IMG/VR virus record: IMGVR_UViG_2786546475_000019
Coordinates: 974 to 64,973 of that record
Length of the DNA: 64,000 bases
Source of the DNA: a virus
Strand: one strand, 5' to 3'
This document shows, one piece after another, positions 2,613-60,487 of this stretch. The translations under genes and the position numbers were made by a program. The stretch's first letter is position 1; every line of letters starts with the position of its first letter. A model generated the notes under the pieces. The model was not told where the DNA came from, did not search any database, and saw only the letters and a program-made list of their open reading frames with translations.

Positions 2613-2676
2613 TTCTGAATTTTTTCAGAATTAGGGGCAATCCGTCCTGCCCTCATTCGTATCTATAGGGAAGTCC
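2613..2676 (+). promoter_or_regulatory. promoter-like module A1: palindrome TTCTGAA-N4-TTCAGAA, then TTTTCA-N6-GGGGCAATCC-N11-CATTCGTATCTATAGGGAAGTCC
   Basis: one of three copies with identical geometry (others at 59266-59322 + and 58653-58708 -); 12 nt before ATG 2688. Confidence 0.6.
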
Positions 2677-37168: not shown

Positions 37169-37320
37169 TAAGTGCTCCTTTGTTTTAGGTACGTGTCTAA
37201 GGTAATTACTGCTGCTTCAATAGTAGACTTCTCCTGTTCAAATTCTTTCAATAGGATCTCCTGATGATCTTTGGAAAGAATTATCAATGAATTTCTAGTT
37301 CTGATTTTTTTTTTTTTGAC
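37168..37320 (-). other. start-less 50-codon frame opening one codon before the A13 run and ending in TAATG on the thyA start
   Basis: no ATG/GTG in frame; would be fused to 37295..37573 if the run were A12. Confidence 0.35.
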
Positions 37321-37585: not shown

Positions 37586-38236
37586 TTAAACCATATTCAA
37601 AGTAATTGGAGGTTTGTCGCTTTTTAAAAGTTTAGCTAGCTTTTCTAACGCTCGCTTTTCAAGTTGACGAACTCTTTCTCGCGAGATATTAAGAGTTTCC
37701 CCAATAGTCTTAAGAGGAATCCCTTGGGCTCGTAGCCTCAAAACTAAAGCATCTCGACTATTTAACTCAAGAAAAGCTTTTTCTAGAGCAATAAGCTCCT
37801 CTTGCCATTCTATCAAATCCCTATCAAGACATTCTAAAGGTGTAACAGGGTTATTAAATAGCCCGTGTAAGGTTTGAAACATTGGAGCACGAGCTATAGC
37901 AGCTTTAGCTCTGTCAAGATGAGCTGGATTTGGAGATACTTTAATTAACTCCACCTTGGTTTTCATGTAAGTTATCATTCGTTGTTTCACCCACGGAGTG
38001 GCGTAAGTTGAAAACTGATAACCTTTACTAGGGTCAAATTTTTTGACCGCCTGACATAACCCACTCATTCCTTCTTGAATTAAATCGTCTAAATCAAGCT
38101 TAGAATTTTTCTTGGCAAAAGACACCGCTATCTTGATAACCAATCCTTGATTATCTAACACTAACCGATTGAGTGCTTCATCAGCTTCCTTTCTAGCAGA
38201 ATGATATTTTTGTAATAACTCGTCATTAGTATCCAC
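37586..38236 (-). CDS. sigma-70 family RNA polymerase sigma factor (group-3-like)
   Basis: region 2 DDLIQEGMSGLCQAVKKFDPSKGYQFSTYATPWVKQRM; region 4.2 TIGETLNISRERVRQLEKRALEKL. Confidence 0.85.
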   Translation of the reverse strand: MDTNDELLQKYHSARKEADEALNRLVLDNQGLVIKIAVSFAKKNSKLDLDDLIQEGMSGLCQAVKKFDPSKGYQFSTYATPWVKQRMITYMKTKVELIKVSPNPAHLDRAKAAIARAPMFQTLHGLFNNPVTPLECLDRDLIEWQEELIALEKAFLELNSRDALVLRLRAQGIPLKTIGETLNISRERVRQLEKRALEKLAKLLKSDKPPITLNMV

Positions 38237-43911: not shown

Positions 43912-44387
43912 TCCGGCTCAGTAGTTCCAACGTATCCCATACCTTTGCCAAGAATCTTGTCTTGATAATAATACCATCGGTATGAGAAGATACAGTCTTC
44001 GAAATCTCCGGCCAAGCCTTTATAATATCCAGGCATAGCCAAGTTTGGAGGAGTAAGAGGGCCACGTCGTATGTAACACGGAGATTGATAAAGATACCCA
44101 ACCCGGTTCCATACTTCATGTAAAGCTAACCCTCTCTTATCCCGCTCCTTCAACAACGCTATCATATGCTTCAAAGTCCATTGATAATTTGAATCAGTGG
44201 AACGAACCCATTGAGTTGACGGGTGATTTGCGAAGCATGGTTTACACATTCCTTGACGCCAAAGTCCAACTTCGTCATGTGCCGTTGATAACATTTGGGC
44301 ACACTCAATCGGCATTTTTGTTAAATGGTCCGTGGCCATGTAGCTAGCTGCAAGGACCGGGTCCATATCAAGGAAGAAAACATTCAC
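43881..44387 (-). CDS. conserved phage protein of unknown function
   Basis: N-terminal FFLDMDPVLAASYMATDHLTKMPIECAQMLSTAH recalls a widespread phage/virus family I cannot name with confidence. Confidence 0.5.
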   Translation of the reverse strand: MNVFFLDMDPVLAASYMATDHLTKMPIECAQMLSTAHDEVGLWRQGMCKPCFANHPSTQWVRSTDSNYQWTLKHMIALLKERDKRGLALHEVWNRVGYLYQSPCYIRRGPLTPPNLAMPGYYKGLAGDFEDCIFSYRWYYYQDKILGKGMGYVGTTEPEWLLHLKGKL

Positions 44388-44770
44388 GCCCCAAGTCCAA
44401 GCGATTTGATGGAAGCCCTTTTGAGTGCTGTCAAGGTAACAACACGTCCAAGTAGCTTGGAAAGTGTTTCTTCGAAGTTATCAAGTTGCTCCGATAATTT
44501 GTATTCGAAGCCGTTCAAAAGTATCACTTCTTCCAAGTTCTCAGAAACCCAAGAATTTAAGTCTTGGTCTTTCACAAGATACTTACCGTCTTGAATCGTT
44601 AACTTGCCATTGATAGTTGGGCCTTTCAATTCGTCTCGCCAAATTTTCACGTTTTCAGGAGCGGTTATGTTAATTGAAGCAGCTCCTGATCCTGCATCAA
44701 AGATTGTTACCCGAACGTCGTTCCCAATTGTAAATGATTGCGACGCCCAGCGTTTAAGAGTTAACGCCAT
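44384..44770 (-). CDS. hypothetical protein
   Basis: 128-aa ORF. Confidence 0.5.
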   Translation of the reverse strand: MALTLKRWASQSFTIGNDVRVTIFDAGSGAASINITAPENVKIWRDELKGPTINGKLTIQDGKYLVKDQDLNSWVSENLEEVILLNGFEYKLSEQLDNFEETLSKLLGRVVTLTALKRASIKSLGLGA

Positions 44771-48650: not shown

Positions 48651-48850
48651 ACCACGCTCCTTGTTGCTTTAGTTTCATCTCCAAGGCCCACGACAGGAAC
48701 TATCAATTCCCCGTTTGGGACAGGGACCGTGACTTCTTCTGGCAATTCAAACCAGTAGTTATAGTGTCGTCCACAAGGGAATTCCACTTTGATAGCTACC
48801 TTAGCTACTGAATCCCTTGTACTTTCTTTGATTCCTTCTTGGGTAATCAT
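48647..48850 (-). CDS. hypothetical protein
   Basis: 67-aa ORF, ATGA overlap downstream. Confidence 0.45.
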   Translation of the reverse strand: MITQEGIKESTRDSVAKVAIKVEFPCGRHYNYWFELPEEVTVPVPNGELIVPVVGLGDETKATRSVV

Positions 48851-48910
48851 TGTTAAACTTTCTGTAAAGTGAGTATAGTCCGTAAATAAACACTAATAAG
48901 TAAAGCATCC

Positions 48911-48944
48911 TGCTCCCCTTTGCTCCCCTTTGCTCCCCTTTGCT
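48911..48944. repeat. 10-bp tandem repeat TGCTCCCCTT x3.4 (AAGGGGAGCA on the - strand)
   Basis: exact units at 48911, 48921 and 48931 in a 101-nt intergenic gap. Confidence 0.9.
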
Positions 48945-48951
48945 TCATTCG

Positions 48952-49341: not shown

Positions 49342-49508
49342 TTGTCTCTCCGTACAGGTAGATGGTAATATTGGCCGTGTTCTTCAAACAAACATCTGAT
49401 AAAAATGTTCACTTTTGACATTTCTGTCCACGGCCCTTTAGAGGCCATCCAAATTACAAAAAGTCCGGCCCCCAATATTAAAGCCATTGATAAAGCTTTG
49501 TGTTTCAT
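49338..49508 (-). CDS. small membrane protein (56 aa)
   Basis: start moved to ATG 49508, behind the conserved GAAAGGAATATCATG of cassette B1; hydrophobic LSMALILGAGLFVIWMA. Confidence 0.45.
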   Translation of the reverse strand: MKHKALSMALILGAGLFVIWMASKGPWTEMSKVNIFIRCLFEEHGQYYHLPVRRDK

Positions 49509-49527
49509 GATATTCCTTTCTAAACAA

Positions 49528-49578
49528 GTAAACAACGGTCCACGCTCCATGATACTTGGAGCGTGGTACGTTGGCTAC
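49528..49578 (-). promoter_or_regulatory. intergenic stem-loop cassette B1
   Basis: - strand GTAGCCAACGTACC-ACGCTCCA-AGTATCA-TGGAGCGT-GGACCGTTGTTTAC; starts 9 nt after the upstream stop. Confidence 0.7.
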
Positions 49579-49586
49579 TCTTACCG

Positions 49587-51284: not shown

Positions 51285-51629
51285 TCAGTCTCCTCTTATC
51301 AATTGATAAATTTCTTTGTAAGTATGTACTGGCATATTATACTTGTCCGCTATATCCTGCCAGTTCTCTTCCCACCAGCTAAAAGAATGACACTGACCCC
51401 CAACTTTCAACACTCCAAAGTCTTGGTTGACTTCTACTTTGCGGCCGTGTAAAATTCCGAGTGTTATCAGTTTGCCGTAGCCGTAGCCGTAGCCGTAGCC
51501 GTAGCCGTCGCCGTCGCCGTAGCCGTCGCCGTAGCCGTAGCCGTAGCCGTAGCCGTCGCCGTAGCCGTAGCCGGTCCCGTAGCCGGTCCCGTAGCCGGTC
51601 CCGTAGCCGTCGCCGTGGTTACTTAACAT
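51285..51629 (-). CDS. protein with an N-terminal Gly-Tyr(-Asp/Thr) repeat region
   Basis: GDGYGTGYGTGYGTGYGYGDGYGYGYGYGDGYGDGDGYGYGYGYGYG followed by a ~60-aa non-repetitive domain. Confidence 0.55.
   Translation of the reverse strand: MLSNHGDGYGTGYGTGYGTGYGYGDGYGYGYGYGDGYGDGDGYGYGYGYGYGKLITLGILHGRKVEVNQDFGVLKVGGQCHSFSWWEENWQDIADKYNMPVHTYKEIYQLIRGD
51474..51616. repeat. hexanucleotide microsatellite (GCCGTA/GCCGTC/GCCGGTCCCGTA variants) encoding the GY repeats
   Basis: about 143 nt of near-perfect 6-nt periodicity. Confidence 0.9.
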
Positions 51630-53645: not shown

Positions 53646-54014
53646 TTATACTTCAGTCCGCCACTTAAGCCAGAATTCCAACATAGCGTTAAAGTTGTGG
53701 TAAGTCCCGTCGTCTTCGACGTTATGATAATCTTCAAGGTCCAACGGGGCGAACTCCTCAAGTGTCTCACGCAACGGTCTGACGGTGTGTGAACCATTCG
53801 TTGAGTAAGAATATGAAACTTCCGTTAACGCCTCACATCGCACAATAAAGGTTTCGAAAGTTTTCTCAAGCCGAGATTGGAGCCTGCGATCTTTGATTTC
53901 TCGAACTATCAGTACCGGGGTTCCTGGTCCTTTGACCAATAACCCTTTCTTGATTTCGATTCGGTTCTCTTTGACTTCTCGACAGATTTTGAACAACATA
54001 GACTTAGCTTTCAT
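53646..54014 (-). CDS. hypothetical protein
   Basis: 122-aa ORF behind cassette B4. Confidence 0.5.
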   Translation of the reverse strand: MKAKSMLFKICREVKENRIEIKKGLLVKGPGTPVLIVREIKDRRLQSRLEKTFETFIVRCEALTEVSYSYSTNGSHTVRPLRETLEEFAPLDLEDYHNVEDDGTYHNFNAMLEFWLKWRTEV

Positions 54015-54038
54015 GATAATCCTTTCAAGTGAGAAACA

Positions 54039-54085
54039 GTAAACAACGGTCCGGGCTACCCGTGGGCAGCACGGTACGTTGGCTA
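54039..54085 (-). promoter_or_regulatory. intergenic stem-loop cassette B4
   Basis: - strand TAGCCAACGTACC-GTGCTGCCCACGGGTAGCCC-GGACCGTTGTTTAC. Confidence 0.7.
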
Positions 54086-54093
54086 TTGATAGA

Positions 54094-54113
54094 CCTAGGC
54101 CCGAAGGCCCAGG
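54094..54113 (-). promoter_or_regulatory. stable hairpin with a UUCG tetraloop in - sense (CCUGGGCC-UUCG-GGCCUAGG)
   Basis: 8-bp stem; the single non-Watson-Crick pair is G-U in - sense but A-C in + sense. Confidence 0.55.
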
Positions 54114-54168
54114 ATTAAATCCAGATTGTCAAAGATCAAAATTATCATTTGTGTCCCGCCACTGGCGG

Positions 54169-54284
54169 AAATGATATGATAGCTTACAGACCTACGGTCA
54201 ATCTATTCTATACTTAATATCGGCAATTGGGAAGTAAGAAAATAGATTATTTTTGAAAATAATCAAAACTTTATCATATCATTT
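54169..54284. promoter_or_regulatory. operator pair AAATGATATGATA (54169-54181) / TATCATATCATTT (54272-54284) bracketing the palindrome GATTATTTT-TG-AAAATAATC (54245-54264)
   Basis: exact reverse-complement 13-mers; the identical pair occurs at 59227/59347. Confidence 0.7.
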
Positions 54285-54285
54285 T

Positions 54286-54627
54286 TTACACTGTTTCCTT
54301 CTCAATGATAATCCCATTGATTTCGAATTGGTTCGTGACCATATGCCAATGCATATCATTATACAGGAACCGATAGCAAGTTCTCCGATACCTGAACTCG
54401 TGACTAGGCCCATGGGCCGTGTACTCGGGTGTAGGCCATTTATCAATGTACCCTGTTAGAGACACGGACCTTTCATCTGGAAAAAAGAATTCAGGCTCTT
54501 GGACCTTGATCAATTCATCGTTGGACAAGTTACGGAGCCAAAGCCTATCTTCATCAAGATGATAATTTGCCTGCCACTCAAACCAAGCTTCAAACTCAGT
54601 CATGAAACAGTATGGGTTTCTGTTCAT
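54286..54627 (-). CDS. hypothetical protein
   Basis: start moved to ATG 54627 (GGGAG RBS, 1 nt after the methylase stop). Confidence 0.5.
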   Translation of the reverse strand: MNRNPYCFMTEFEAWFEWQANYHLDEDRLWLRNLSNDELIKVQEPEFFFPDERSVSLTGYIDKWPTPEYTAHGPSHEFRYRRTCYRFLYNDMHWHMVTNQFEINGIIIEKETV

Positions 54628-55979: not shown

Positions 55980-58586
55980 TTAAGTTGCCCTTTCTCCCTT
56001 AATCGTTTCCCTTTTAACACCGTCTGGAGTTTCAACAAAACGAAACCCGTTGTCTTTCGGAGCTTCATACGAGAAGCGAACATTGTAGATACATGTCTTT
56101 TGCATCTCGTCAATAGCTATCAAATACATTTCCGCTAGGTTCTGTTCGAACTTCTTACGATTTGCTCGCCCCCCGTCGTCCATGTAGTTCTTATACAGAA
56201 GTTGAAGCTCCACTTTTGATCCAGGCTGTTCTTGGAGCACGGACCGTGCAAAGAGTTCAACGTCGGTTCGGTTCAAGTCCGCAGCTTGCTCTTTATCAAC
56301 CGTATCCACAACAGGAACATTCAAACGCCCCTGAGTTGGCGGTATTTGATACGCTAACAAGGCATACAGAAACGCGGGAGCTTGAGCTTCCAGTTGTTCC
56401 AAAAGAAGTTTCTTTGGAATAACTTTATCTGGCTTCTTGGGTACATTGATAACCGTGATTCGGGTGTCTCCGGGAAGTATCGGACAGAACTCACGATTGT
56501 TCGCGGTGTGAATCCAATGCGACGTATTAGGTATCATGTAAGCGGGCTTGCCTTTTGTGTTGACTGAGATTACTTTGGACGTAACATAGTCTTTAACTTT
56601 TTGATAAACAGTGGAGTCCGAGTTCAAGTTAATCTCCTCAAGAACGCAAAGCACCGCCCCAGCAAGTTCACTGTTGAACGAGCTGACTAACGCGTTCTCC
56701 GCTCGAACGACACCGGGACTAAACAACAATGATAATGCTTCATGCAAAATCGACTTCCCGGTGTCTTGCTCCGTGGAATACAAAAACAGAAACGGCAAAG
56801 GTTCAAACGGTTGTTGTATCAATGACGCGACCCACGCAAACAGATAGTCGTGTCCTTTGCAAATACCGTTCTCCGTGAACCAATTATCCTTACGAACGTA
56901 TTGATCTAGAGAGTGTCCGATATGGTCCAGAATCTTCATCCAAAGATCAAAGTTTCCTTCTTCTGGAGTGTGTCGCAGTTGAGCAGCTCCCCGATTCCAT
57001 AAACGATTACCCGGATATTCAGACTCAAAGGGTCGTGAAACAATGTTCCAGGGCTTCATGATAGCTTCACCCTGCATCTGCTGAATCTCTTTAGTGTTCA
57101 TTCCTTGGCTTTTGAGACCGAGCGTCAGGTTGGCGATCGGTTCTTCGATCCAACCGTTATCATGCGTCTCAATAGCCCAACCGGCGTCCACGCTACCCAT
57201 AATCATGTGACGAATCTGCGTATTCGTGTCCACGTCATACGGGCTACCAGTACGAGACTCTTTTATCACTTTCAACCAACGTGTTCCTTTTGCGATCCAA
57301 CCTTCAATGCCGCCTGGGTCGCCTTTGATTTTCGGAATCTCAATTTTAAGCTTGTTTTCCTTTAGCTGAGTGACAGTTGCTTGACGAGCTATCAATACTT
57401 CGTCAATGGCTTGCATTTCATGTTGCTGGAAAAGCTTAGTCAATTTATGAGCAGGAAGCACCATTCCTTTTTTATCATCTTCTAACGCTCCTGAATCTTT
57501 CACCAAGGTCCAAAGCGGTGGAACATAATTCAAATACGTGCGAGTCCATCCGTTCTTCGTGGTCCACGATTCATGTTCCTTGGCTTCGTTGCCATATCGG
57601 TACACGGCCCATGCTCCGTGTGGAAGCGGATACGCGAAGCAGTTCTGTTTGTGGAGATCAGTTCCGTCACTGATAGTCTGGAAATCGCCTTTAAACCCGA
57701 GTTCTTTGGAAGCTTGCTCCAATAGTTTAGTGTGCGTGATAAACATCTTTCCTTCCGCGTTCCAGTAACCAAACGCGGAGTTGTTATTCATCCACTCAAG
57801 CAAACGCTCATGTTCTTCTTCAAGCGTCACGGACTGTTTGTGCTTGATAATTTCTTCCATACGGTCATCAGCATAAGAGTGTTTCTTCTTACCGCTCACG
57901 ACGCCAATATGATCTCGCCATCCCAGCGGCTCTTTGATATGGGCCTCAGCTTCCTTAATAATTTGAAAGCCGTTCTCTCCCGTTTTCCGTGACCATACCC
58001 ACATATTACAACCGAAAACATCAACTGCAAGGTCAAAGTCGAAACCAGTCTCAAGACATAGTTGACTCAGAACGCCGCGAGCAAGAGCAGCGTGTTCTGC
58101 CCGACTTGTCGTAGTGATAAGGTCTTCAAAGAAAACATATAAGTGGTAGCCAGCTCCACTTTTAGATCGTTGTACTCGCACCCAAGGTACGTTACACGCT
58201 CGTTGTTGAATATCAAGTAGATCAGTCTGCGTTAGCTTGTGCTTGTGCCGAGCTGAGTGGCCCACGATACCGTCAAAGTCGAAAGCAACATATCGCGAGA
58301 TGCATTGCCCAAAGTCCCACCCCGATAAACCAACCATTGAGGCGTGATCTTCCAGGCTGAACTTGATATTTCCTTCATCGTATTTGCCATCAATTCGAAA
58401 ATTCTTCCAGACTTGAACACCGTCAGTCCACTCCCGGTAGGTCCGACCTTTGTATTCCTTATCAACAGGCTCGCCGCCATCAGCGGCTACGTTTACTTGA
58501 ACTTCCATTGTAGGCGAGTATAACGCCGCCATGTGGGGTTCTGCGTTATCACGCAAGAATCGTTCTAAAGCTTCACTTTTACGCAT
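55980..58586 (-). CDS. AEP primase-polymerase fused to an SF3 (D5/P4-type) helicase
   Basis: VAFDFDGIV and SKSGAGYHLYVFF (AEP motifs); Walker A STEQDTGKS in the C-terminal half; start set to ATG 58586 (GAGG RBS), track start 58592 is TTG. Confidence 0.8.
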   Translation of the reverse strand: MRKSEALERFLRDNAEPHMAALYSPTMEVQVNVAADGGEPVDKEYKGRTYREWTDGVQVWKNFRIDGKYDEGNIKFSLEDHASMVGLSGWDFGQCISRYVAFDFDGIVGHSARHKHKLTQTDLLDIQQRACNVPWVRVQRSKSGAGYHLYVFFEDLITTTSRAEHAALARGVLSQLCLETGFDFDLAVDVFGCNMWVWSRKTGENGFQIIKEAEAHIKEPLGWRDHIGVVSGKKKHSYADDRMEEIIKHKQSVTLEEEHERLLEWMNNNSAFGYWNAEGKMFITHTKLLEQASKELGFKGDFQTISDGTDLHKQNCFAYPLPHGAWAVYRYGNEAKEHESWTTKNGWTRTYLNYVPPLWTLVKDSGALEDDKKGMVLPAHKLTKLFQQHEMQAIDEVLIARQATVTQLKENKLKIEIPKIKGDPGGIEGWIAKGTRWLKVIKESRTGSPYDVDTNTQIRHMIMGSVDAGWAIETHDNGWIEEPIANLTLGLKSQGMNTKEIQQMQGEAIMKPWNIVSRPFESEYPGNRLWNRGAAQLRHTPEEGNFDLWMKILDHIGHSLDQYVRKDNWFTENGICKGHDYLFAWVASLIQQPFEPLPFLFLYSTEQDTGKSILHEALSLLFSPGVVRAENALVSSFNSELAGAVLCVLEEINLNSDSTVYQKVKDYVTSKVISVNTKGKPAYMIPNTSHWIHTANNREFCPILPGDTRITVINVPKKPDKVIPKKLLLEQLEAQAPAFLYALLAYQIPPTQGRLNVPVVDTVDKEQAADLNRTDVELFARSVLQEQPGSKVELQLLYKNYMDDGGRANRKKFEQNLAEMYLIAIDEMQKTCIYNVRFSYEAPKDNGFRFVETPDGVKRETIKGERAT

Positions 58587-58603: not shown

Positions 58604-58618
58604 AAATTGATATCATTT
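58604..58618. promoter_or_regulatory. near-palindromic operator-like site AAATTGATATCATTT in the primase leader
   Basis: related to the AAATGATA / TATCATTT half-sites. Confidence 0.45.
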
Positions 58619-58652
58619 TCGATAACAGATTCGAGAAAGCCCGAAACAACCA

Positions 58653-58708
58653 GACTTCACCCTATAGCTACGAGTGGCGGGATATCGGATTGCCCCACAA
58701 AATGAAAA
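58653..58708 (-). promoter_or_regulatory. promoter-like module A3
   Basis: - strand TTTTCA-TTTTGT-GGGGCAATCC-GATATCCCGCC-ACTCGTAGCTATAGGGTGAAGTC, about 70 nt upstream of ATG 58586. Confidence 0.6.
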
Positions 58709-59017: not shown

Positions 59018-59058
59018 CACGCTACACGTATCACGCTACACGTATCACGCTACACGTA
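59018..59058 (+). repeat. tandem 14-mer CACGCTACACGTAT x2.9
   Basis: units at 59018, 59032 and 59046; followed by ACGT/CGCGTG-rich repeats up to 59225. Confidence 0.9.
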
Positions 59059-59142
59059 CGCGTAGCACGTGGGTACGTGCCAGGGCCAAAGACCTTGAGT
59101 TCTCTTTTAAGTCTCGGAACTGACGTGTAAATTAGTAAGCGG

Positions 59143-59169
59143 TTATCATTTTGCGTGAGCAAATGATAA
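59143..59169. promoter_or_regulatory. inverted repeat TTATCATTT-N9-AAATGATAA
   Basis: perfect 9-bp arms. Confidence 0.6.
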
Positions 59170-59226
59170 TTCTCGCGTGCTCCCGCGTGTCCCGCACGTG
59201 CGACTATTTAAATACGCGACGTGCGT

Positions 59227-59359
59227 AAATGATATGATACATGGTTTTCAAAATACTTGAAAATATTTTCAAAATACGGGGCAATCCTGCCCGGTTTTAT
59301 TCGTAGCTATAGGGGGAAAGTAGACTGTTTTACTTTCCAAAACGACTATCATATCATTT
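59227..59359. promoter_or_regulatory. operator pair AAATGATATGATA (59227-59239) / TATCATATCATTT (59347-59359) bracketing module A2
   Basis: exact 13-mers identical to the 54169/54272 pair. Confidence 0.7.
59257..59322 (+). promoter_or_regulatory. promoter-like module A2: palindrome TTGAAAATATTTTCAA, then TTTTCA-N6-GGGGCAATCC-N11-TATTCGTAGCTATAGGGGGAAAGT
   Basis: same 29-nt spacing from GGGG to CTATAGGG as A1 and A3. Confidence 0.6.
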
Positions 59360-60403: not shown

Positions 60404-60412
60404 ATTGATAGT

Positions 60413-60474
60413 TTCAATTTAGTTTCAATTTAGATTCCATCTGATACTTCAATTTTAAACTTCAACTTCAATTT
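60413..60474 (+). repeat. four exact TTCAATTT octamers plus one TTCAAC in 62 nt
   Basis: octamers at 60413, 60424, 60448 and 60467; intergenic, downstream of the ParB-like gene. Confidence 0.8.
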
Positions 60475-60487
60475 AAAAGGACATTTT

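Follow-up and report, generated by a model that had tools for sequence, protein, structure and literature searches.

A dyad-symmetric pentamer module inside a phage operon may be an extra copy of an origin-type replication-control element

The core origin of SV40 and other polyomaviruses carries tandem pentamers in two opposed pairs, to which an SF3 helicase binds with its origin-binding domain. In SaPIs, Rep proteins read penta- or hexanucleotide iterons with a winged helix at their C-terminus, and the conserved feature of the origins is that an AT-rich region has two or more iterons on either side, running in opposite directions (PMC9371898). Gram-negative PICIs have the same origin layout (PMC6092414), which has been described as unique to phage-inducible chromosomal islands. 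For pRN1 and the Bordetella phages BIP-1 and BPP-1, a stem-loop origin has been proposed 3' of the AEP-primase/SF3-helicase genes (PMC4234260). Here we compare these systems with a non-coding island inside the leftward operon of an uncultured marine tailed phage.

The DNA analysed (the window) is a 64-kb stretch that makes up most of Tara Oceans contig ERZ909121 k127_854715 (72,328 bp), deposited under an Acidobacteria MAG; all positions given are those of the window. Among its genes are those for a gpA-type terminase, a P22-like coat protein and a tape-measure protein; the phage is tailed and siphovirus-like. Structural genes form a rightward arm at 1-33 kb, and a leftward arm occupies 33.5-58.6 kb. 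The phage also encodes a small sigma-70-family factor, a CsrA-like protein and ParB-like proteins. The first gene of the leftward arm encodes an 870-aa primase-helicase (55980-58586) with a DUF5906 domain and a weak AEP match. It is followed by two small genes, a Dam-class methyltransferase gene and a 113-aa gene ending at 54286, then by the island and a series of ORFans. Four genes and 1.7 kb separate the island from the primase-helicase gene upstream of it; as the initial annotation had proposed, the island borders a replication block (primase-helicase and Dam-like methyltransferase) on one side and an ORFan block on the other.

The 271-nt gap at 54015-54285 is real non-coding DNA and is unchanged in sister contigs, which are 99.7% identical. 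It had been called the largest gap in the operon, which holds for ORF-free DNA. In the public gene calls it is exceeded by a 301-nt uncalled stretch (48651-48951), although this stretch and another of 245 nt (49342-49586) contain small ORFs that are called in a sister contig. The operon is not otherwise gap-free as had been claimed, since the public calls for the same contig leave further gaps of 42-199 nt. The ORFans past the island are not mutually paralogous and no homologues of them were found. A homologue search identified the gene directly downstream as a true ORFan, and the small proteins flanking the island had no homologues among the relatives described below. All sequence motifs that the initial annotation had listed in the island were recovered at their reported positions, but several belong to larger structures, one at the DNA level and one at the RNA level.

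The DNA layer spans 54141-54312, running past the reported right edge of the island and 27 nt into the upstream gene. It contains the 13-mer TATCATATCATTT, which occurs exactly four times in 64 kb against an expectation of 0.01. The copies are arranged as two inverted pairs, of which one lies in the island and one beside the parB-like gene (59227-59239 and 59347-59359), with 90 and 107 nt between the arms, respectively. In the island, the right inner arm (54272-54284, + strand) consists of two tandem TATCA pentamers plus TTT, and its inverted partner, the left inner arm (54169-54181), reads AAATGATATGATA on the + strand and TATCATATCATTT on the - strand. A second, perfect inverted repeat lies outside the first. 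Its left arm ATTATCATT (54141-54149) forms part of the listed motif ATTATCATTTG (54141-54151) and also of a - strand 12-mer, CAAATGATAATT, which has a second occurrence at 59160-59171. Its right arm AATGATAAT (54304-54312) is the exact mirror of the left and falls within the 3' end of the 113-aa gene.

The 9-mer and 13-mer repeats are exactly concentric, with a common centre at 54226.5 in the middle of a CAATTG (54224-54229), and on either side 19 nt separate the outer from the inner arm. Read as pentamers, the layout is a perfect dyad: TATCA, 24 nt, TGATA TGATA, 90 nt, TATCA TATCA, 24 nt, TGATA. The tandem pentamers lie at 54172-54181 (TGATA twice) and 54272-54281 (TATCA twice), with the mirrored single pentamers at 54143 and 54306. 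By density of TGATA/TATCA the island ranks first in the window and the other 13-mer unit second. As a side observation, the 9-mer AATGATAAT matches the core of a Fur box, but the period of the 13-mer is 5 nt, not 6 nt, and the over-representation of ATGATAAT throughout coding DNA weakens a Fur-box reading.

Between the inner arms lies an AT-rich core of 90 bp (54182-54271; 28.9% G+C). It contains the central CAATTG, a 20-bp near-palindrome, GATTATTTT-TG-AAAATAATC (54245-54264), and a match to the IHF consensus (54261-54273), which is one of 15 in the window and hence not decisive. The right half of the core together with the right-hand arms (54233-54312) is the AT-richest 40-, 60- and 80-bp segment of the 64 kb. 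DnaA boxes were not enriched within the window. All 26 arm positions are identical between the two 13-mer units, whereas the cores show just a weak likeness, confined to the sense of the downstream genes (z 2.5). Identity of the arms despite divergence of the cores indicates that selection acts on the arms.

This layer resembles the SaPI/PICI origins in geometry, its AT-rich core being flanked by opposed sets of two or more iterons. It also resembles them in the type of initiator, as the phage primase-helicase is structurally SaPI5-like, with AAV Rep, papillomavirus E1 and SV40 large T antigen coming next among its matches. It does not, however, lie immediately 3' of its rep gene, and the repeats of relatives lie upstream of that gene. 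It further differs in having 2+1 pentamers per side (six in the symmetric unit), where SaPIs have 6-12 iterons, in belonging to a 72-kb tailed phage rather than a satellite, and in having a second copy upstream, by the parB-like gene; origin function is here a prediction. Like the proposed pRN1 and Bordetella-phage origins (PMC4234260), the element can form a stem-loop, measures about 100-170 nt and lies downstream of its gene. It differs in having iterons, of which pRN1 has none, and in its short stems of 13 and 9 bp, which are conserved in sequence and not only in pairing. The likeness to SV40 lies in opposed tandem pentamer pairs, with an AT tract and a palindrome alongside and promoters around them. 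The four SV40 pentamers are contiguous, whereas those of the phage are split by 90 bp, and the two are not linked by sequence or evolution.

Our preferred reading, tentative at a probability of about 0.45, is that the core is an extra binding module of the SaPI/PICI-like origin type. In such a scheme the dyad-symmetric module at 54141-54312 would be bound by a sequence-specific phage protein. The phage's own primase-helicase may read the pentamers with a winged helix at its C-terminus, load to either side of the core and open the AT-rich 90 bp, the stretch that should melt most easily. Segment scans of the C-terminal 168 residues of the primase-helicase returned no Pfam domain; the winged helix is a structural prediction for residues 777-840, made from the order of helices and strands rather than from an aligned range. 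We infer both the identity of the pentamer-binding protein and the firing of an origin, and the protein could instead be the conserved ParB/HTH neighbour. Protein bound at the island should also affect transcription running through from the primase promoter, and the core is possibly a gene switch as well.

To place the module in a wider context, we turned to relatives of the phage. An IMG/VR profile search returned 310 loci encoding a relative of the primase-helicase; 80 of the 310 were examined, of which 69 were non-redundant. The primases of the examined relatives are approximately 38-42% identical to that of this phage, and across the homologues identity falls from 100% straight to 43% or less. 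With no close relative, phylogenetic footprinting of the island is not possible. The conserved gene order in the relatives is helicase, 222-aa gene and parB-like gene, then a spacer of approximately 300-600 nt, then the primase-helicase gene and later a methyltransferase gene. Gaps that seem to follow the primase genes of relatives are probably artefacts of crude ORF calling. The 13-mer itself, the RNA cassette described below (cassette B) and the promoter-like module of this phage were absent from all relatives examined. No DNA match was found in the cultured-phage collection. Exact matches to cassette B were found in none of three collections, and neither the 13-mer pair nor the promoter module had a match in IMG/VR.

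The tandem pentamer, by contrast with the 13-mer, is shared. In generalised form, (TGATW)2, it occurs 106 times in the 69 non-redundant loci, with 91 of these copies no more than 1 kb upstream of the primase-helicase start, across 43 loci. Control pentamers (unrelated permutations) gave 4-22 copies, 0-3 of them near the primase-helicase gene, while two circular permutations that read the same repeat scored as high as (TGATW)2. The usual form in relatives is TGATTTGATT; one locus (L005) has TGATATGATA, as in this phage. Copies stand at both ends of the parB-like/primase spacer in opposite directions, and the spacer often has only 19-26% G+C against 34-40% for the locus. Most arms are in the sense of the adjacent gene (30 vs 7 and 24 vs 5, approximately 80%). 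Many have an inverted partner 3-45 nt away and in one case 402 nt away, and in many relatives single arms have no partner. The primase-proximal arm is often preceded, at 0-30 nt, by a -10-like box. Some relatives without (TGATW)2 carry other, lineage-specific inverted arms at the same places (L028, L046). In others, two to three perfect DnaA boxes lie within 100 nt of the primase start instead of arms (L059, L061, L052/L053), and L072 has one such box. The pair that the initial annotation had named an operator is thus better assigned to a tandem-pentamer element conserved across the family, which relatives carry in the primase-helicase/parB-like control region.

The position of (TGATW)2 in relatives, at the parB-like/primase spacer, suggests that the 59.3-kb unit is the orthologous one, in the ancestral place, and that the island is probably an extra copy downstream of the primase-helicase gene. 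The island would then be a displaced copy of a module normally found in the parB-like/primase-helicase control region. The GC skew turns at approximately 59-62 kb and not at 54 kb, so the main origin, if there is a single one, is more likely to be at the divergent region. Given the family-conserved tandem pentamers, the SaPI-type layout and the SaPI5-like primase-helicase, we consider that the core is at least as likely to act in replication as to have a purely transcriptional role.

The 13-mer pair of the 59-kb unit (59227-59359) brackets a promoter-like module, standing at about -80 and +35 relative to it. This 50-nt module, TTTTCA-N9-GGGGCAAT-N16-CGTAKCTATAGGG, is present in three copies that head the three main operons, the only perfect copies with the expected context being those at 2637, 58669 and 59281. 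In ECF-type promoters the -35 element contains AAC and the -10 element CGT(A) (PMC5758882); the GCAAT/CGTA pattern at 16-nt spacing resembles them, and the phage has its own small sigma factor. The module GGGGCAAT-N16-CGTAKCTATAGGG is absent from the island. If it is what the initial annotation meant by an A-type module, the statement that the island has none was correct, as the motif is found at 2.6, 58.7 and 59.3 kb only.

Other promoter matches in the island are weak. In the leftward direction there is a weak sigma-70-like match of 9/12, TTCCCA-17-TAGAAT (54205-54233, - strand). A better one of 10/12, TTGAAA-18-TATCAT (54253-54282, + strand), runs antisense to the operon. It is the joint best in 52.0-56.5 kb and its -10 hexamer lies inside the right inner arm. 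Both are consensus matches only, and matches of such quality are common in AT-rich DNA. Each of the four arms has a -35-like hexamer 17-19 nt upstream; three score 9-10/12 and the fourth, at a 19-nt spacer, lies beyond the scan range. The idea that the 13-mers are -10 boxes of outward-firing promoters is weak because of the AT-rich context. A promoter for a single-subunit phage RNA polymerase, suggested by a 'TATAGGG', was discarded as no such polymerase was detected, and a sigma-54 reading was discarded as the spacing was inconsistent among copies. As worded, the suggestion of an internal promoter lacks support: the leftward matches reach only 9/12. A promoter or roadblock role may nevertheless apply.

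The strongest rival to the origin-type module builds on these signals. It holds that the core is an internal promoter or roadblock bracketed by operators, with a repressor (the ParB/HTH protein or a small unknown one) bound to the 13-mers and 9-mers. Such operators would control either a promoter in the core or the passage of transcription from the primase promoter to the ORFan block, in co-regulation with the parB-like operon. We regard this as possible but rather less probable than the origin-type reading. It accounts well for the bracketed promoter-like module of the sister unit, for the weak likeness of the two cores in the sense of their downstream genes, and for the arms of relatives, which at both divergent genes stand in sense orientation, after a -10-like box and before the start codon. 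It is also consistent with the sigma-70-like matches in the island and with the long structured leader and ribosome-binding site that follow the core. Yet the leftward match is weak (9/12) with the best match antisense, and the promoter module of the sister unit is missing from the island. The arms themselves are unusual for helix-turn-helix operators: with a tandem repeat of 5 bp, each site faces away from the one before it on the helix. Among relatives, the distance separating the arms varies from 3 to 402 nt; one sub-clade has DnaA boxes in place of the arms; and a promoter would need neither so extreme an AT content nor so strict a dyad geometry.

Looping operator pairs are known from gal (OE/OI) and lac (O1/O3). 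The sister unit resembles these in having identical sites approximately 100-120 bp apart that bracket a promoter, but each arm is a direct repeat and not a palindrome, and no repressor was identified. In iteron plasmids, initiator sites that double as autoregulatory operators are classical, as in the inverted repeats of rep genes. As initiator sites can serve as operators, the origin and operator readings are not exclusive.

The second layer of the island is at the RNA level. The island RNA folds far more stably than its shuffles (z = -4.9), and the 13-mers pair in the minimum-free-energy fold. Directly adjoining the left inner arm is a GC hairpin, CCGCC-AGU-GGCGG in the - strand transcript (DNA CCGCC-ACT-GGCGG; 54156-54168; -10 kcal/mol, z -3.1). 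A C(UUCG)G tetraloop hairpin follows (54094-54113, - strand) with 8 pairs, -15.5 kcal/mol and z -3.5; its stem is the longest of all UUCG-loop stems in the window. A 17-codon mini-ORF (MIILIFDNLDLILGLRA; 54095-54148, - strand) can be read from the sequence, with a poor ribosome-binding site and its stop codon within the UUCG hairpin. The final element, occupying the last 79 nt of the island, is the cassette B copy termed B4, whose three-tier interrupted stem of approximately 20 pairs (54036-54088, - strand) leads into a tail (54015-54035) with a U-rich tract, the Shine-Dalgarno sequence GAAAGGA (54020-54026) and a TTATC spacer before the ATG at 54012-54014; the cassette thus ends in GAAAGGATTATC-ATG. 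The whole RNA layer, 54168-54015, would be the transcribed leader of the first ORFan gene.

Cassette B is approximately 80 nt long and occurs four times, at 49.5, 53.1, 53.6 and 54.0 kb, scoring 68-75 bits with a covariance model (R1). This model found no copy beyond the four in the window and none in 1.2 Mb of relatives. Searches of Rfam 15 and for tRNA/tmRNA gave no match at gathering score, only matches at chance level (E > 1). The three copies outside the island each fill the entire 75-82-nt spacer ahead of an unrelated small gene. The stem comprises a lower tier GUAGC/GUUUAC, a middle tier CAACG/CGUUG, a 2x2 internal loop and a variable upper stem of 9-10 pairs. The RNAalifold consensus of the four copies has 20 pairs, 4 of which show changes on both sides. 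In copy 3, a C-to-U and an A-to-G change keep the pairing as G-U in the mRNA sense only. A promoter within the cassette was ruled out as the TTTACT-TATCAT spacing varies from 14 to 20 nt, and CsrA binding was ruled out as the hairpin loops have no GGA.

Intercistronic RNase III sites of T7 have approximately 20 pairs with an internal loop and lie between genes, just before the next ribosome-binding site. B4 has the same kind of structure, with approximately 20 pairs, an internal loop and pairing kept by compensatory changes, and cassette B shares with the T7 sites its length, a conserved lower part below a variable upper stem, and the position before a ribosome-binding site. It differs in that cleavage is a prediction and the U-rich tail permits a terminator reading. 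We infer RNA cleavage at B4, which may be processed in the manner of an RNase III site or act as a partial attenuator, in either case delimiting and stabilising the messages of the ORFans. From its sequence, the cassette fits a processing or attenuator element, and its UUUACU-rich tail also allows a partial terminator.

Cassette B was also compared with the PeSLs of T4-like phages, which are composites of an early promoter and a stem-loop (PMC2839356, PMC4122927). Like these cassettes, it is a small conserved stem-loop repeated before unrelated ORFans in a variable region. It is nevertheless not a PeSL, having the stem-loop but not the promoter half: no promoter stands at a fixed spacing (14-20 nt), the stem is long and interrupted, and the phage is siphovirus-like.

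Regarding termination, a scan for intrinsic terminators flagged nothing in the island. Such a terminator would have a U-run directly after a GC-rich stem. The CCGCC and UUCG hairpins have no U-tract on either strand; the B4 stem is followed by UUUACUGU, for which a terminator reading is possible. The initial annotation had proposed an internal control point acting as promoter, terminator or processing site. The terminator option is not supported as worded, as the island has no canonical intrinsic terminator anywhere. The processing option fits the last approximately 80 nt, cassette B4, an RNA-level hairpin with compensatory changes. The broader notion of a control point survives in so far as the region is multi-part, non-coding and fits processing or attenuation at B4, but it has neither a canonical terminator nor a strong leftward promoter.

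Given this RNA layer, the nested inverted repeats might themselves act in RNA, pairing in a read-through transcript to control the processing, stability or translation of flanking genes. The pairing of the 13-mers in the z -4.9 fold and the neighbouring UUCG hairpin and cassette B, which act at the RNA level, lend this some weight. We nonetheless consider it unlikely: the 13-mers are identical at two loci with no covariation, pairing ends exactly at 13 and 9 bases, and the two spacers, though both 19 nt long, are not complementary. In addition, the arms of relatives are often single or up to 402 nt apart, and the upstream arm of the sister unit would lie outside a transcript begun at the promoter-like module.

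Least probable of all is that the island has no function today, being either a duplicate of the control region in decay or what is left of a small mobile or invertible element; the weak likeness of the two cores, the restriction of the island copy to this lineage and the resemblance of the inverted repeats to terminal repeats could suggest as much, but 26 of 26 arm positions are identical despite diverged cores, a concentric perfect repeat with a central palindrome would not survive neutral decay, no target-site duplications flank the arms, the four loci shown for 10 independently assembled contigs all have one orientation, and no recombinase was found among approximately 40 window proteins scanned or in precomputed Pfam listings.

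Taken together, the idea of an internal control point holds in part, but for the core the better reading is a replication-control module of the family, copied to a displaced position. Phage intergenic regions commonly carry protein-binding repeats and RNA hairpins, and all parts of the island are of known kinds; the interest lies in the family-wide element and not in a new mechanism. What is new is the family-wide (TGATW)2 element, its exchange for DnaA boxes in one sub-clade, and a SaPI-like layout in a tailed phage. A more far-reaching picture, which we put forward as doubtful, is of a large uncultured family of tailed phages with a SaPI-like, self-loading primase-helicase and an origin code of opposed TGATW pentamers, interchangeable with host DnaA boxes in one sub-clade, of which this member would have two origins, one of them displaced to mid-operon, where binding of the initiator would also gate ORFan transcription.

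Should the core instead be an operator set, it would define a regulon of the replication module. If it is an origin, a layout so far tied to phage satellites would extend to widespread uncultured phages (310 loci), and the island would provide an example of an origin module copied into an operon. (TGATW)2 would then be a testable recognition code for a primase-helicase family that has no cultured member.

The TGATA pentamer, two tandem copies of which form the core of the 13-nt arm of the island's inverted repeat, is abundant throughout the window. Together with its complement TATCA it occurs 496 times, which by our own estimate is roughly three times the number predicted from composition, and the three most frequent hexamers of the window are TGATAA, TATCAA and ATGATA. 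The longer word ATTATCAT is present in 28 copies over the whole window against 2-4.5 expected. These copies are mainly intragenic, and in the leftward arm of the genome their orientation follows the direction of transcription.

Two palindromes were also noted. The primase 5' leader (58608-58622, minus strand) contains the arm in a compact palindromic form, AAATGATATCAATTT, and a second palindrome with 9-nt arms, TTATCATTT-N9-AAATGATAA, is found at 59144-59170. The compact form is placed between the primase start and a promoter-like module, TTTTCA-N9-GGGGCAAT-N16-CGTAKCTATAGGG, of which there are three copies: 2618-2670 (plus), 58650-58700 (minus) and 59262-59314 (plus). Each of the three main operons carries one copy at its head. 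Judged by its sequence pattern, the module is ECF-like. The phage also encodes a sigma-70-family protein (37586-38236, minus strand).

Other motifs were found in the relatives, which were recognised by primase-helicases about 38-42% identical to that of this phage. GATT-N4/5-AATC palindromes such as GATTTASTAAATC occur 10-38 times per ~22 kb in relatives L005-L084 (for example L040, L036, L014 and L067), where about 0.3 would be expected, and they are found in both coding and non-coding DNA; none is present in the 64-kb window. Some relatives carry perfect DnaA boxes, TGTGGATAA, in the 100 nt preceding the primase-helicase start, with two or three each in L059 (9914-9994), L061 (9857-9964), L052 and L053 and a single box in L072. 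Tandem pentamers were not found upstream of primase-helicase in any of the four DnaA-box loci checked (L059, L061, L052 and L072).

Arrays of short direct repeats occupy non-coding DNA of the window at 263-325, 2273-2334, 2440-2520, 59019-59060 and 60404-60487. Examples include three copies of the 20-nt AATATCAACTAGCTGCACGC and three of CACGCTACACGTAT, and repeats of TTCAATTTAG are located past the parB-like gene. A 128-aa phage protein with a CsrA domain (44384-44770, minus strand; domain match under the curated cut-off) was also noted.

The two sister contigs of this phage appear to differ at two minus-strand genes. One, largely composed of GCCGTA repeats and encoding a Gly/Tyr-rich product (51285-51629), shows an apparent length difference of ~50 nt between them. 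The other follows the sigma-factor gene and contains a run of 13 A (37290-37310); its called product is 134 aa in one contig and 95 aa in the other. Two assemblies from sample ERR594388, L003 and L004, end 10-72 nt beyond the island, within or just after B4, its hairpin and ribosome-binding-site cassette. B4 shares an exact 32-nt repeat with another such cassette, B2. The breaks may result from this repeat or from strain variation in the ORFan block.
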